Below, piece by piece: positions 4,735-9,761 of a stretch of DNA of 31,107 bases. The notes under the pieces are model-generated. The model was given only the letters and a program-made list of their open reading frames with translations, was not told where the DNA came from and did not search any database. The translations under genes and the position numbers were made by a program. How positions within the stretch are numbered: position 1 is the stretch's first letter; the number at the start of each line of letters is the position of its first letter. The DNA is from a virus (Duplodnaviria; Heunggongvirae; Uroviricota; Caudoviricetes): IMG/VR virus record IMGVR_UViG_2602041644_000001; one strand, 5' to 3'.

Positions 4735-5487
4735 ATGAACCTTGAAGCCTTACCGAAATATTACTCCCCAAAATCTCCAAAATTGAGCGATGACGCACCG
4801 GCGACAGGCTCTGGTGGTTTAACAATTACGGATGTAATGGCTGCGCAGGGGATGGTGCAGTCGAAAGCACCGCTTGGGTTTGCCTTATTCCTGGCAAAAG
4901 TTGGTGTTCAGGATCCTCAGTTTGCGATTGAAGGTCTGCTCAATTACGCGATGGCACTGGATAACCCGACATTGAACAAATTGAGTGAAGAAACCCGGCT
5001 ACAGATCATTCCTTACCTTGTGAATTTTGCCTTTGCTGATTATTCCAGGTCTGCGGCAAGTAAGGCTCGCTGTGAGCATTGTGCTGGTACTGGATTTCAT
5101 GATGTATTGCGCGAGGTGGTGAAACACTCCAGAAGCGGGGAATCTGTTATCAAGGAAGAGTGGGTGAAGGAACTGTGTCAGCATTGTCATGGTAAGGGAG
5201 AAGTCAGCACAGCGTGCAGAGGGTGTAAGGGTAAAGGTATTGTCCTGGATGAAAAAAGAACCCGGCTTCATGGCACGCCTGTTTATAAGGTTTGTGGGCG
5301 TTGCAATGGAAACCGGTTTAGCCGTTTACCAACCACACTGGCGCGGCTTCATGTCCAGAAGCTGGTACCAGACCTGACGGATTATCAGTGGTACAAAGGA
5401 TATGCAGATGTCATTGATAAACTGGTTACAAAGTGCTGGCAGGAAGAAGCGTATGCTGAGACACAATTGAGGAAAGTGACGAGATGA
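4735..5487 (+). CDS. Putative late-gene antiterminator Q (QuuQ-like, four CxxCxGxG zinc-finger repeats)
   Basis: 250 aa with CEHCAGTG, CQHCHGKG, CRGCKGKG, CGRCNGNRF repeats. Immediately upstream of a strong promoter and intrinsic terminator, and of the lysis cassette. Confidence 0.6.
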   Translation: MNLEALPKYYSPKSPKLSDDAPATGSGGLTITDVMAAQGMVQSKAPLGFALFLAKVGVQDPQFAIEGLLNYAMALDNPTLNKLSEETRLQIIPYLVNFAFADYSRSAASKARCEHCAGTGFHDVLREVVKHSRSGESVIKEEWVKELCQHCHGKGEVSTACRGCKGKGIVLDEKRTRLHGTPVYKVCGRCNGNRFSRLPTTLARLHVQKLVPDLTDYQWYKGYADVIDKLVTKCWQEEAYAETQLRKVTR

Positions 5488-5518
5488 ATGATTTTCGACG
5501 AAAATGGCGACATGATGC

Positions 5519-5547
5519 TTGCATTTTTCAAAAAAAATGGATAATAT
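5519..5547 (+). promoter_or_regulatory. Putative late promoter (pR'-like)
   Basis: TTGCAT (5519-5524), 17-nt spacer, TAATAT (5542-5547), directly downstream of the Q-like gene. Confidence 0.5.
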
Positions 5548-5593
5548 TATCTCAATGATAGGCATTGTGTGTCCGGCTTTAATAAAAAGTAGA

Positions 5594-5620
5594 AAACCCG
5601 CTGATGTGCGGGTTTTTTTT
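5594..5620 (+). terminator. Intrinsic terminator (tR'-like)
   Basis: Hairpin CCCGC-TGATGT-GCGGG followed by T8. Confidence 0.7.
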
Positions 5621-5698
5621 CGGAATTTTAGATGTGTGGCATTGAAATGGTATTCGGCGAGTAGGTAGAATTTAAACTTTCGTCTCGTCTGGATCGAC

Positions 5699-6241
5699 AT
5701 GATGTTTCAAGCCTTCCAAACAGCAGTATTTAAAAATGTTGCAGAGTATTTAAAAGGGCGCTTCCCTCATAAGTCGTTAGGGCTCGTATATGCCGACGAG
5801 CTGGTACTAAAAGATATGGAGTTCCTCAAGGCTAACAATAAACTGCGGTGGGATCCCGGACTAAAGTCGCGAGTGTTTATGGATATGATGGAAGAACACC
5901 CGATAAAACTAGTTGTTTATTATCGTGGGGAGCCTATTGGATTTGCATTTGGGTGTTACTGTAAGCCGAAAAATGCGGTGCATATTTGCTGGATGGAAAA
6001 ACGTAATGATGCACATGAAGACCTAGACCATCAGATGCTTGGTATCGTTTTGGATTGCTTCTCTGCATATGCACGATTTCTGAACCTTCAGGGTGAATCT
6101 ATTGATTCGATAGCTTTAGTTAGTCCAGTTGATGGGGCAATAAGATACTATACTGAAAGTGGTTTTGAGTACATTGCTGATTACGAACGAGGTGGTTGCG
6201 CAATGGTGCTTAGGAGCGTTTTACCTAACCAATCAGTGTGA
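5699..6241 (+). CDS. Cargo protein, possible GNAT-like acetyltransferase fold
   Basis: 180-aa ORF in a visibly AT-rich island. Segment MLGIVLDCFSAYARFL...AIRYYTESGFEY loosely fits GNAT motifs A/B. No confident family assignment. Confidence 0.5.
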   Translation: MMFQAFQTAVFKNVAEYLKGRFPHKSLGLVYADELVLKDMEFLKANNKLRWDPGLKSRVFMDMMEEHPIKLVVYYRGEPIGFAFGCYCKPKNAVHICWMEKRNDAHEDLDHQMLGIVLDCFSAYARFLNLQGESIDSIALVSPVDGAIRYYTESGFEYIADYERGGCAMVLRSVLPNQSV

Positions 6242-6432
6242 GTTAGATTCTTAATTTCTCCAGAATCATTACAAAAGTATTGAAAACCTCTTTTAGTTGA
6301 TGCAATCTGGATCCACACAAAGCACACACAAAATGTACTACGCTTTACTTTATACATCTTCAGGTAACAAACTTTGTTGCCTTTATGCTTCAAAGAAGCA
6401 ACTACAGCTTAGTGCTGAACAAGGGGATTTTT

Positions 6433-6618
6433 ATGAAACATCATGAGCAGATAGAGATTGAGGCAGCTAAAGTCGTCGCCGAACTCTTTGCTGGCAATGC
6501 ATCTCCAATGGAAACCTTTGGTATTACATGGAGTCAAACTCAGATGTTAGAGCGTAAGAATCCTGGTGTAGTGATCAAACTAGTACCGGATGACGGTAAA
6601 AAACTTGCGTATTGCTGA
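6433..6618 (+). CDS. Small hypothetical protein (61 aa)
   Basis: ATG at 6433 with AAGGGGA RBS. AT-rich context, followed by an intrinsic terminator. Confidence 0.45.
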   Translation: MKHHEQIEIEAAKVVAELFAGNASPMETFGITWSQTQMLERKNPGVVIKLVPDDGKKLAYC

Positions 6619-6676
6619 TAATTTTTAAAGATTTTTTCAGCTAGAGAATCGATTATTTTACTATAAATCGCGAAGG

Positions 6677-6705
6677 AGCCCCACATATTGTGGGGCTTTT
6701 TGTTT
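6677..6705 (+). terminator. Intrinsic terminator
   Basis: Hairpin AGCCCCA-CATATT-GTGGGGCT followed by a T-run. Confidence 0.6.
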
Positions 6706-6875
6706 CATCTTAGTTAGCCGTTATTCACATTCACTACTTTGCTACTTATCCACTGTAAAAATAAATTGTGAATTATTTTGTGGCTTATTGTTAGTGTTCT
6801 ATCAATTTTGTGTGTGATATTCCATTGGCGTGGTTATTATCTGTGCATCGCACTTAAATGTATAAAGCTCACTAG

Positions 6876-7190
6876 TTGAGACAATCCTACCACCAGTTGG
6901 TGGTATCTCATGATTCACTGAATTGCAAATCTTCTGAATTGCTGGATGAGTTTAAATCTCACCGGCGCTATTTCTCCGTATCAGTCTCCGTGCCTTATAC
7001 CGATGTCAGGACGCATAAGCCCGTTCAGTTCTACCCGGGTAAACATCCGTGCGAGAAACCGGCGGATATGCTCAGGCAAATAATCAATGCCAGTAGTCGA
7101 CCTGGTGATCTGGTTGCTGATTTCTTTATGGGATTCGGTTCCACAATAAAAGCAGCAATGGCGCTGGGGCGTCGGGCGTTAGGTGTTTAA
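6876..7190 (+). pseudogene. C-terminal remnant of an N6/N4 DNA methyltransferase
   Basis: Only the C-terminal AdoMet-binding part is present (HPCEKPADMLRQII, DFFMGFGST ~ HPTxKP / FxGxG). The N-terminal ~35 codons are unrelated and there is no DPPY motif. Coding status of the remnant unknown. Confidence 0.6.
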
Positions 7191-7326
7191 CTTGAGTCAG
7201 AGCGGTTTAATCAGACGGTGAAAGAGGTAAGTGAACTGGTGGGGAAATAATTCTGGTGGCCACGTTGCGTGGCCTTTTTATTTCCAACACAGCACCCGCA
7301 AATATCGCGAGGTGAGAGATGACGAA

Positions 7327-7656: not shown

Positions 7657-8133
7657 ATGCAGGTACTAAATTCCCAGCGTAAAGCTTTCCTTGATATGGT
7701 GGCTTGGTCAGAAGGAACGGATAACGGACGACAACCGACACGTAACCACGGTTATGACGTTATTGTCGGTGGTGAACTCTTCACTGATTACTCCGATCAC
7801 CCTCGCAAACTTGTCACGCTAAACCCGAAACTCAAGTCAACAGCCGCCGGACGTTACCAGCTTCTTTCACGCTGGTGGGATGCTTACCGTAAACAGCTTG
7901 GCCTGAAAGATTTTTCTCCAGAAAGCCAGGACGCTGTAGCTCTGCAGCAGATTAAAGAGCGTGGCGCTTTACCGATGATTGACCGTGGCAATATTCGTCA
8001 GGCAATCGACCGTTGCAGCAATATTTGGGCTTCATTGCCCGGTGCTGGCTACGGTCAGTATGAACACAAGATCGATAGTCTGATTGCCAAATTCAAAGAA
8101 GCTGGCGGGGTGGTTAATGAAACTTCGCTATAA
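7657..8133 (+). CDS. R: Endolysin, lambda R-type lytic transglycosylase
   Basis: Near-identical to lambda R as recalled (NSQRKAFLDM.AWSEGTDNGRQ.TRNHGYDVIVGGELFTDYSDHPRKLVTLNPKLKST.AGRYQLLSRWWDAYRKQLGLKDFSP). Confidence 0.95.
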   Translation: MQVLNSQRKAFLDMVAWSEGTDNGRQPTRNHGYDVIVGGELFTDYSDHPRKLVTLNPKLKSTAAGRYQLLSRWWDAYRKQLGLKDFSPESQDAVALQQIKERGALPMIDRGNIRQAIDRCSNIWASLPGAGYGQYEHKIDSLIAKFKEAGGVVNETSL

Positions 8134-8509
8134 GCTGGTTATTTCTGCTTTCCTCCTGACTTTATTCGGTTCTCTCGTCTGGTCAGCTAACCACTACCAC
8201 AGCAAATACCAGCGCGAAAAGAAACGTGCTGATGAGGCTGTACAAAATGCCGAATCGGCAACCGCTATTACCAATAACGTCCTGCAATCACTGCAAATCG
8301 TCAATACAGTTCTGGAGGCTAACCAGCATGCAAAACAGCAGATCGCACTGGAGTCACAGAGAACCCAGGCTGATATCAAAGTGGCTGTTGCGGATGATGA
8401 TTGTGCTGTACGCCCTGTGCCTGCTGCCGCTGCTGACCGGTTGTGGAAGTACGCGAACAGTTTACGTGAGCATTCCGAAGACTCCACTACCAGTCAGCTT
8501 GACTTCTGA
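8117..8509 (+). CDS. Rz-like inner-membrane spanin (i-spanin)
   Basis: N-terminal TMD (LVISAFLLTLFGSLVWSANHYH, cf. lambda Rz ...WAVNHY) and charged coiled-coil periplasmic domain. Overlaps the R stop. Confidence 0.75.
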   Translation: MKLRYKLVISAFLLTLFGSLVWSANHYHSKYQREKKRADEAVQNAESATAITNNVLQSLQIVNTVLEANQHAKQQIALESQRTQADIKVAVADDDCAVRPVPAAAADRLWKYANSLREHSEDSTTSQLDF

Positions 8510-8642
8510 TACACCTGTACCGTTTATACCCAACCCACTGACGTATGGTGCAAGTCTTGATTTGAATGTAAGTTTGTTATCCGCGTTGGCTCAATGTAAT
8601 AGGGATAAGTCAGATATCAGAATCATTGATAATCAAAATTGA
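8394..8642 (+). CDS. Rz1-like outer-membrane lipoprotein spanin (o-spanin), overlapped type
   Basis: +1 frame relative to Rz. Lipobox LLTGC after a hydrophobic signal, proline-rich mature region. Extends 133 nt past the Rz stop. Confidence 0.7.
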   Translation: MMIVLYALCLLPLLTGCGSTRTVYVSIPKTPLPVSLTSDTPVPFIPNPLTYGASLDLNVSLLSALAQCNRDKSDIRIIDNQN

Positions 8643-8846
8643 TGTATATTTTTATCGTCATGTAGATAACGAACAAGGTATTCCTCTGATACGTATTCGT
8701 TGAATACAGGTCATGGGTAGGCATTGCAATATCGCTTCGAAATTATCTGTGATAATGCTCTTAATTTTGAATGTATGTATTTGGGAAAAGAGATAAAGTA
8801 ATAGTCTAATTAATGGAGATATCCACAAAACACAAAAGGGACTATT

Positions 8847-9353
8847 ATGAGACCAGATCAATTTTTCTATCCAGATACTTTTACCTTTAATTCATCCACC
8901 TATTATGGTCAACGTGACTCATCTAAAGGCCGATTGTATATTCCTATTGAAAGTGACTTATGCCCATTTAATATCGGCGATATCATTGTGCAAAAAATGG
9001 TCGACAGGGAAAGACTATTTGAAGTGCTTGATTACGAGGTGCAAATTAGTCTCGAGGTTGGTTGCCCTGGCTACTCACATTTGGCGGTATTGATAGTGAA
9101 GGCATTGGATGTAAAAGAGAAGCCGAAGCAGATTACGACCCATTTGACGTTTAACGGTGCTATTAATGCTGGTGGTGATTTTCAAGCCGGTAATGATAAT
9201 TCGATCACAAAGAATATAACCATTCAACAACTACATGATGCTATAGAGCATTGCAATGATCCAGAGGTTAAAAGCCTTTGGCAAAAGCTATTGGAAAATC
9301 CGACGTTTGCTTCAATTGCTTCAATATTGGCAAAAAGTGCTTTAGGACAGTAA
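8847..9353 (+). CDS. Hypothetical cargo protein (168 aa), no recognisable family
   Basis: AT-rich island between the lysis and packaging modules. RBS AAAAGGGA, own AT-rich upstream region and own intrinsic terminator. Confidence 0.6.
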   Translation: MRPDQFFYPDTFTFNSSTYYGQRDSSKGRLYIPIESDLCPFNIGDIIVQKMVDRERLFEVLDYEVQISLEVGCPGYSHLAVLIVKALDVKEKPKQITTHLTFNGAINAGGDFQAGNDNSITKNITIQQLHDAIEHCNDPEVKSLWQKLLENPTFASIASILAKSALGQ

Positions 9354-9361
9354 TTCATCAA

Positions 9362-9386
9362 GCCCCATTCAATATGGGGTTTTTAT
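9362..9386 (+). terminator. Intrinsic terminator
   Basis: Hairpin CCCCAT-TCAAT-ATGGGG followed by TTTTTAT. Confidence 0.6.
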
Positions 9387-9410
9387 GCTTATTACAAAGA
9401 GTTTTCTTCA

Positions 9411-9761
9411 ATGCCACCACGAATCCCAAAATCCTGCCGCGTTCGCGGCTGCCGCCATACCACTACTGACCCGTCAGGCTACTGCGAAAGCCACAAAAGC
9501 GAAGGCTGGAAGCAATACAAGCCAGGACAATCCCGTCATCAGCGCGGCTACGGTTCGAAATGGGATGCTATCCGTGAACGTGTACTGAAACGTGACAAAG
9601 GTTTATGTCAGTTATGTCTGCGTGCCGGTGTGGTGCGTGAAGCGAAAACCGTTGACCACATCATCCCTAAAGCGCATGGCGGCACTGATGCCGACTGTAA
9701 TCTGCAGAGTCTGTGCTGGCCGTGTCATAAGGCGAAGACGGCCCGTGAACGGTTGAAGTGA
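9411..9761 (+). CDS. HNH endonuclease (terminase-associated)
   Basis: Cys-rich N-terminus (CRVRGCRH...CESH) and HNH core (VDHIIPKAHGGTD...NLQSLCWPCHKAKT), immediately upstream of the terminase genes. Confidence 0.85.
   Translation: MPPRIPKSCRVRGCRHTTTDPSGYCESHKSEGWKQYKPGQSRHQRGYGSKWDAIRERVLKRDKGLCQLCLRAGVVREAKTVDHIIPKAHGGTDADCNLQSLCWPCHKAKTARERLK

Follow-up and report, generated by a model that had tools for sequence, protein, structure and literature searches.

The virus record IMGVR_UViG_2602041644_000001 (Caudoviricetes; 31,107 nt, the whole of which we refer to as the window) carries, between its lysis and packaging genes, a mobile accessory cassette with a single open reading frame (ORF) of 168 amino acids (aa) at positions 8847–9353. 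The cassette occupies a variable slot of an e14/SfV-like E. coli prophage, its gene recurs in unrelated phages, satellites and genomic islands, and the encoded protein belongs to a broad family in which a strongly conserved Q-G-N segment connects a predicted β-barrel to a helical C-terminus. The reading that we favour—tentatively, and with somewhat less than even confidence—is that of a ‘moron’ cassette encoding a cytoplasmic three-part protein for conflict between mobile elements.

A foreign single-gene cassette at the Rz1–HNH junction

A prophage 100% identical to the window is present in NZ_CP145634.1, whose RefSeq annotation gives the order Q-like antiterminator, holin, GH24 endolysin, Rz (DUF2570), Rz1/LysC, the ORF, HNH endonuclease, and small (TerS, P27 family) and large (TerL) terminase subunits, followed by HK97-type head genes and a contractile tail. 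Identity extends to a cultivable phage, vB_EcoM-689R6. A preliminary description of this DNA, made from its letters alone, had placed a ~750-bp insert at 8640–9390 and proposed comparing the Rz-to-terminase slot across related prophages. This comparison revealed the slot to be either empty or filled with unrelated cargo. In the sister prophage L056, the gap between Rz1 and HNH measures 26 bp. When the window is aligned to this empty slot, homology breaks off at ~8600, still within the 3′ end of Rz1, and resumes precisely at the start codon of HNH (9411). Given these sharp borders, the insert itself stands, with its extent reset to ~810 bp (8601–9410). Homology to L056 stops ~42 nt short of the Rz1 stop codon, and the last ~14 codons of Rz1 are replaced by the insert; the cassette therefore supplies a different C-terminal end to Rz1, the o-spanin.

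In the sister prophages L057–L061, six unrelated cargos fill the slot in either orientation (two minus-strand genes; one minus-strand gene; a 145-aa plus-strand gene; a 64-aa plus-strand gene; a GrlR-family gene). Five of these cargos, of 189, 111, 124, 145 and 64 aa, are unannotated and matched neither Pfam nor PADLOC, while the sixth matched the Pfam family of GrlR regulators, which is linked to control of type III secretion (T3SS). The slot is a reservoir of small uncharacterised genes, and the comparison confirms that P27/e14-like prophages have a cargo hotspot at their Rz1–HNH junction. Among 5426 complete E. coli genomes, the full insert was found in 29, and one or both of its flanks in 1296.

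The GC content falls to 0.32–0.41 across ~8500–9400, as compared to 0.47–0.60 in the flanks. All the basic elements of the gene that had been described initially—the 168-aa ORF, its AT-rich upstream region and a good ribosome binding site—were recovered from the ORF list, the sequence and the GC profile; the ribosome binding site reads AAGGGA (8836–8841), at a spacing of 5 nt from the ATG. The intrinsic terminator described 3′ of the ORF was likewise found, in the form of a 9-bp stem (9360–9382; RNAfold energy, −13.3 kcal/mol) that begins 7 nt after the stop codon and is followed by TTTTTATGCTTAT. A terminator scan of 1.2 kb returned two sites against 1.1 expected, and taken alone the site at 9360–9392 is not significant. 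It is nevertheless credible because of its position 7 nt past the stop codon and because a hairpin with a T-run also follows eight out of ten homologues in unrelated contexts. Within the leader, an extended −10-like element, TGTGATAAT, at 8748–8756 is the best candidate for a promoter; similar elements (TGTGATTAT) lie ~40 nt upstream of the homologues in two other loci (L065 and L067). An Rfam scan of 8400–9500 matched no RNA element. As far as sequence can tell, these features support a compositionally foreign, discrete single-gene cassette with its own terminator in a variable slot between lysis and packaging genes.

The gene recurs in unrelated phages, satellites and islands

Close homologues of the encoded protein (49–73% identity, 165–171 aa) are found directly after four mutually unrelated lysis cassettes with different holin, endolysin and spanin families (L004, L062, L066 and L067). 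In a Serratia prophage, the homologue stands alone on the opposite strand, with tail genes to one side and a DUF927 primase to the other; a Pseudomonas P2-like prophage (L070) has it at its end; and further homologues reside in insertion sequence (IS)-rich islands of Aeromonas and Shewanella. A distant subfamily (27–38% identity), of the same length and alignable end to end, is found in elements of ~15 kb, as the sole opposite-strand gene in the interval from the primase/single-stranded DNA-binding protein (SSB) module to the major capsid gene. The elements contain integrase, AlpA, an Icd-like gene, primase, capsid, protease, portal, connectors, HNH, TerS and TerL, are devoid of tail and lysis genes, and are therefore satellites resembling phage-inducible chromosomal islands of the capsid-forming type (cf-PICIs). 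Sister satellites exist that do not carry the family gene. The opposite-strand placement in the satellites implies that the family can carry its own promoter.

In ten out of ten contexts examined, the GC content of the homologue was below that of its flanks, and in eight the hairpin and T-run at its 3′ side were built from unrelated sequence. Low GC content and terminators across contexts therefore amount to a moron pattern. At the level of sequence, the shared gene links the Rz1–HNH hotspot of the prophages to a hotspot between pri and capsid in the cf-PICI-like satellites. Literature searches with the family accessions and the PHROG identifier returned nothing, and the gene is not discussed in the cf-PICI papers.

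Several of the loci are noteworthy for their surroundings. In E. coli 042 (L055; NC_017626.1, 2233235–2252334), a cf-PICI-like element with the homologue WP_001053661 is apparently integrated inside terL of a resident prophage: TerL fragments, one without the N-terminus and one without the C-terminus, border the element, and the satellite integrase adjoins one of them. The last ~10 kb of the 106.5-kb record of Klebsiella phage P12620-1 (L005; PQ569648.1, 96543–106503) parallel the satellite layout in ORF size and order alone. Here, ORFs of ~388, 186 and 413 aa, all annotated as hypothetical, stand at the capsid, protease and portal positions of the E. coli cf-PICI-like element L054, and an opposite-strand homologue is followed by a 711-aa ORF at the position of the DUF927 primase of L054. 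Leader and terminator of this homologue are near-identical to those in L054, which suggests the record end to be either a co-packaged satellite or a chimeric assembly. In L067, an Acb2/Tad1-hairpin-like protein (anti-CBASS/Thoeris sponge family; 5882–6163) and a GnsAB toxin (8700–8873) are encoded near the homologue, and in L070 a HEPN RiboL-PSP-like protein (6320–6922) immediately upstream of it; the homologues in these two loci have mixed defence and counter-defence surroundings.

A conserved segment between a β-barrel and a helical C-terminus

Profile searches gathered at least 283 family clusters (at 90% identity) across Gammaproteobacteria, including environmental genera such as Shewanella, Marinomonas and Pseudoalteromonas. 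Nearly all members measure 166–173 aa and all are annotated as ‘hypothetical’. The window protein had no match in Pfam, NCBIfam or PADLOC (v2, 2023 library) and was assigned to phrog_5789 (‘unknown function’) in PHROGs; none of the four resources thus provides a function for the family. This agrees with the preliminary description, which had seen no motif that it could place and had considered an N-terminal run of the protein unlike structural proteins: no significant match to a structural or lysis protein emerged either. Profile searches against the PDB, with the full-length protein and with its C-terminal module, yielded chance-level matches only (designed helical repeats, flagellin and RIPK1 RHIM peptides). 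Of the remote-homology search and structure prediction that had been proposed, the former found no annotated relative and the latter modelled barrel and helices.

AlphaFold2 was run with 19 and then with 122 sequences and gave the same picture both times. Residues 1–90 are predicted to form a six-stranded β-barrel (predicted local distance difference test (pLDDT) score, ~90) and residues 126–166 three helices (126–134, 139–150 and 152–166; pLDDT 75–84), with residues 92–122 showing no secondary structure (pLDDT ~50) even with 122 sequences. The N-terminal run FYPDTFTFNSSTYYGQ, which had at first appeared odd, is accounted for by the first two strands of the well-predicted barrel. Column entropies of 1.28 for residues 100–124 and 1.45 for the barrel revealed the segment to be the more strongly conserved of the two. 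Its family consensus is TFNIGS(I/V)SGxQVQVGNxNxxxVNI; T101 and N103 are nearly invariant, and the residues invariant across the family are D62, Q113, G115, N118, L129, D138 and N151. Strong conservation paired with an unfolded monomer model is what would be expected of a region that becomes ordered upon assembly or partner binding.

The C-terminal tail of the window subfamily (PTFASIASILAKSALGQ) has a Kyte–Doolittle (KD) hydrophobicity of ~1.3–1.4 over 14–17 residues, a lysine included, and that of the wider family (TVASIVGAGASALLGLL) one of 1.9–2.05 over 15–17 residues. The window protein (N-terminus, MRPDQFFYPDTF) possesses no signal peptide, lipobox or N-terminal hydrophobic segment, and in the absence of the former two is predicted to be cytoplasmic. 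In an exhaustive profile search, fusions of the C-terminal module (~70 aa, comprising the motif, two helices and the tail) to unrelated N-terminal domains came to light; these domains include a zinc-ribbon (P0054), helical forms of several kinds and, in viral contigs, a form of 245 aa. Short predicted proteins of 58–78 aa, which may be fragments, contain the module as well, and in one P2-like phage a variant is encoded downstream of gpA; a homologue search with the 72-aa module returned short or partial proteins only. A constant C-terminal module beneath swappable N-terminal domains would be in keeping with the pattern of conflict systems, in which sensors change and effectors stay.

The barrel, too, is found in other company. 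P0079 (326 aa) and P0099 (334 aa) carry it ahead of a decayed motif copy (GSESGEQTPG), beyond which come unrelated C-terminal regions; the motif scan gave no match in P0079, whose C-terminal region is a GNAT acetyltransferase. From this layout, the barrel also couples to other effector-like domains. A barrel profile (positions 4–62) further matched 13 repeats in P0025 (4708 aa) and five in P0096 (1793 aa), both giant Big_9/cadherin-like RTX adhesins, with a summed E value of 1e-27. These matches probably reflect weak similarity multiplied by repetition and are then uninformative on function, although barrel and adhesin repeats could conceivably share a β-strand motif.

Resemblance of the conserved segment to amyloid motifs

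A φ-Q-φ-G-x-x-N core is typical of RHIM/BASS3-type amyloid motifs (bioRxiv 10.1101/2020.01.06.895854), and in E. coli an amyloid motif (BASS11) controls abortive infection by the Bab/Agp system (bioRxiv 10.1101/2024.11.07.622273). According to the latter study, Bab/Agp is located in prophage hotspots of E. coli and viral RHIM proteins act as counter-defence. Among the C-terminal modules of the present family, RHIM was the most recurrent Pfam match, seen in three out of 22 relatives (best E value, 6.5e-4), all of them below the gathering threshold of 20 bits for Pfam RHIM (PF12721); P0055, for instance, fell short of it with 17.3 bits (E = 0.0034). The window protein itself did not match Pfam RHIM. 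In the PDB profile search, RIPK1 RHIM core peptides were among the top matches, with an E value of 0.56. Some family members contain the G-φ-Q-φ-G signature exactly, as G-I-Q-I/V-G; the family consensus is Q-V-Q-V-G-N-x-N and the window protein reads G-D-F-Q-A-G.

Six-frame motif scans detected the motif in the family gene only, throughout the 31-kb window. Across 12 related loci it was confined to the family gene as well, save for one apparently chance match in L055. Two-gene amyloid signalling of the kind represented by Bab/Agp and the BASS pairs was rejected, as there is no second copy of the motif near the gene.

A tentative role in inter-element conflict and its rivals

Our best guess is that the gene encodes a single-gene effector of inter-phage conflict. 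The protein would act in defence or exclusion against competing phages: the barrel, as a specificity domain, would recognise a phage-derived cue, the conserved Q-G-N segment would drive conditional self-assembly in the manner of RHIM/BASS-type motifs, and assembly would direct the C-terminal helices towards either a partner or the inner membrane, whereupon the competitor would be aborted or blocked. As for expression, co-orientation with the Q-dependent late operon leads us to expect late read-through into the gene. Late transcripts would reach the terminase genes through the cassette, so the terminator at 9360–9392 would have to be read through in lytic growth, for which lambda-type Q antitermination serves as the model. 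In the lysogen, a transcript from the gene’s own weak promoter would end at the same terminator, and HNH and terminase genes would stay silent. A true conflict role would add an unannotated single-gene system that is carried by hundreds of gammaproteobacterial prophages and cf-PICIs.

A more specific version, possible but unlikely in our judgement, posits a new class of single-polypeptide amyloid-switch effectors of abortive infection or exclusion on temperate phages and cf-PICI satellites. The swappable N-terminal domain would sense a competitor phage and elicit RHIM/BASS-like cross-β assembly of the invariant Q-x-G-x-x-N; assembly would expose a C-terminal glycine-zipper helix, and the inner membrane would be permeabilised. 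Such a protein would combine in one chain what Bab/Agp and HET-S/NWD2 divide between two genes, as their ‘all-in-one’ counterpart, and its motif would be the first of its kind on phages and satellites of Enterobacteria. If the segment is an amyloid switch, RHIM/BASS signalling would reach beyond two-gene NLR-like systems into a compact format of one protein, with a bearing on the age and spread of amyloid-controlled cell death.

A number of points weigh against the conflict reading. In five contexts, the window among them, the gene is co-oriented and located right after lysis genes, which fits a late, lysis-linked role as well. The scan identified no σ70 consensus promoter on the plus strand upstream of the ORF at its threshold. 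What the preliminary description had called independently transcribed cargo is supported in its second half, through slot variability, GC content, terminator and hotspots, but not in its first, as the gene shares the orientation of the Q-dependent late operon and no consensus promoter was detected for it. Arguing from location is weak, since the other cargos of exactly this slot are unannotated, too. The RHIM matches are all sub-threshold and therefore denote resemblance, not membership, and flagellin, which is not an amyloid, scored as high as RIPK1 in the PDB profile search. Owing to the degenerate F-Q-A-G in place of V-Q-V-G and to the weakly hydrophobic, lysine-containing tail, the amyloid-like and membrane steps are less secure for the window protein. 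The PADLOC null adds to these points, although it carries little weight because the validated immune protein TaiEcA of phage φ80 also goes unrecognised by the 2023 library.

The same position and tail might instead belong to a late-operon lysis accessory—a regulator of lysis timing akin to antiholins, or a membrane-active helper—that is expressed by Q read-through only and acts via its membrane-seeking C-terminal helix. In the window, L004, L062, L066 and L067, the co-oriented gene lies directly or within two small genes 3′ of holin–endolysin–spanin cassettes, its tail is hydrophobic and rich in small residues, and a consensus promoter of its own was not found. This explanation is nonetheless unlikely: the slot is empty in close sister prophages whose lysis genes are the same, cf-PICI satellites have no lysis genes and yet encode the family, on the opposite strand and with a terminator of its own, IS-rich islands harbour the gene as well, neither Pfam nor PHROG relates it to a holin, antiholin or lysis family, and the tail of the window subfamily falls short of the hydrophobicity of a clear transmembrane segment. 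Likewise unlikely is interference with virion assembly, whereby the barrel would mimic a head-closure or stopper protein and poison the head–tail joining or tail use of competitors, with a Tai/Tab-like outcome; in cf-PICIs, helper tails would thereby be freed for satellite capsids. Head-closure mimicry is a weak lead. The head-closure, stopper and neck proteins concerned (Phage_H_T_join; PDB 2kz4, 8vhx_F and 9lbn_J) show no sequence similarity to the protein and are without the conserved C-terminal module of the family, comparison with the prophage’s own head-closure protein gave an hhalign probability of 0.1%, and Foldseek searches against the PDB and BFVD returned no significant match and did not confirm the likeness; the resemblance may be that of any small barrel.

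A counter-defence decoy, in which the φ-Q-φ-G-x-x-N segment co-assembles with host BASS-type immunity such as Bab/Agp and blocks it—as herpesvirus RHIM does with necroptosis—would account for the resemblance of the segment to RHIM/BASS motifs. It would also suit the Acb2/Tad1-like anti-defence gene two genes downstream in L067, and both an amyloid-signalling abortive-infection system in E. coli prophage hotspots and RHIM-based viral counter-defence are on record (bioRxiv 10.1101/2024.11.07.622273). For this purpose the motif alone would suffice, yet barrel and helical tail are conserved end to end over the 283 clusters, and the satellites carry the gene at hotspots known for defence rather than counter-defence; we regard a decoy as distinctly improbable. 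Even less credit, close to none, goes to a bor-type lysogenic-conversion or virulence factor that acts at the cell surface or on an animal host, a role that the preliminary description had entertained. Lambda bor does sit in the analogous position after Rz, and the alternative slot cargos include the T3SS-linked GrlR-family regulator. The lack of a signal peptide, lipobox and N-terminal hydrophobic segment makes such a role unlikely, however, and the spread of the family over environmental Gammaproteobacteria argues against host-specific virulence.

Coordinates and neighbouring cargo

Table 1 Features of the cassette and its flanks, in window coordinates
Feature	Position	Strand	Basis	Description
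Inserted cargo cassette	8601..9410	.	Alignment to empty-slot sister prophage L056	Replaced 3′ end of Rz1 included
AT-rich non-coding leader	8643..8846	+	Sequence reading	GC 0.31
ORF/coding sequence (CDS)	8847-9353	+	ORF list	168 aa, ATG start
CDS part 1, aa 1-90	8847..9116	+		Predicted six-stranded β-barrel; putative specificity or sensor domain
CDS part 2, aa 100-124	9144..9218	+		Conserved segment LTFNGAINAGGDFQAGNDNSITKNI; RHIM/BASS-like φ-Q-φ-G-x-x-N core
CDS part 3, aa 125-168	9219..9350	+		Helical C-terminus; two helices (ITIQQLHDAIE, DPEVKSLWQKLLEN), then hydrophobic small-residue helix PTFASIASILAKSALGQ
Intrinsic-terminator-like hairpin and T-run	9360..9392	+		Arms AAGCCCCAT / ATGGGGTTT, 5-nt loop
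Spanin genes	8117..8642	+	RefSeq annotation and ORFs	Rz (DUF2570, 8117-8509) and embedded Rz1/LysC (8397-8642)
HNH endonuclease	9411..9761	+	RefSeq annotation and ORFs	First packaging-module gene; then TerS (P27 family), TerL

The window contains a second AT-rich stretch (5450–7200; GC 0.32–0.41), located between the Q-like antiterminator and the holin. It comprises ORFs of 180 aa (5699–6241) and 61 aa (6433–6618), both without a Pfam match, and a truncated DNA methyltransferase pseudogene (6876–7190). As the preliminary description had titled the cassette a second cargo gene, this stretch is probably the implied ‘first cargo’ slot.

Comparison with known systems

The moron concept (Juhala/Hendrix) is exemplified by lambda bor, an antisense-oriented, lysogen-expressed gene for an outer-membrane lipoprotein that is positioned after Rz. 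The cassette resembles morons of the bor type in being an extra gene of foreign composition with its own terminator, present in some and absent from other syntenic phages, just after Rz/Rz1. It differs from bor in that its product has no export signal, the gene runs in the direction of the late genes, and for a promoter it has a candidate only.

With Bab/Agp, the family shares a short, Gly/Asn/Gln-rich conserved segment with a φ-Q-φ-G core beside a helical, membrane-seeking domain, as well as the location at E. coli prophage hotspots; its consensus has the tetrapeptide I-G-S-V in common with Bab residues 87–90. For Bab residues 81–109, stacked β-arches have been reported. The arrangement is a different one, however. 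The motif is internal in the present family instead of terminal, and the hydrophobic helix is C-terminal instead of N-terminal. No adjacent gene shares the motif, an NLR or TPR-GreAB-PIN partner is absent, and so is a Bell/HeLo domain; at the N-terminus, where a pore-forming domain of the Bell/HeLo type would have been sought, Pfam gave no match and a β-barrel is predicted.

Tai (tail assembly inhibition) systems provide immunity through a single gene and are carried by phages, PICIs and P4-like satellites, with φ80 orf63 (TaiEcA) as the prototype (He et al. 2024, PMC11364771); their hallmark is that tailless particles are released and that escape mutations lie in tail-tip proteins. The same study reports Tai genes in immune hotspots that it places, for PICIs, ‘downstream of pri’ and, for phages, ‘upstream of the packaging module’. 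The present family occupies both of these Tai-carrying hotspots, the former in PICI-like satellites and the latter in phages. Like Tai, it consists of small single-gene morons with a wide distribution in Proteobacteria and low identity from version to version, and it is missed by PADLOC and DefenseFinder-type libraries. Membership in Tai was rejected, with a BLASTP E value of 0.11 and an hhalign probability of 1.9% against φ80 orf63. TaiEcA measures 204 aa, and an architecture of β-barrel, Q-G-N segment and hydrophobic tail is not apparent from its sequence alone. Whereas tai of φ80 runs antisense to the late operon, in a non-contiguous operon, and adjoins an anti-Tai gene, the window gene is co-oriented and has no conserved neighbour. 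The gene is an unannotated addition to the known class of phage and satellite morons at immune hotspots, distinguished by an unusual architecture and by the breadth of its family.

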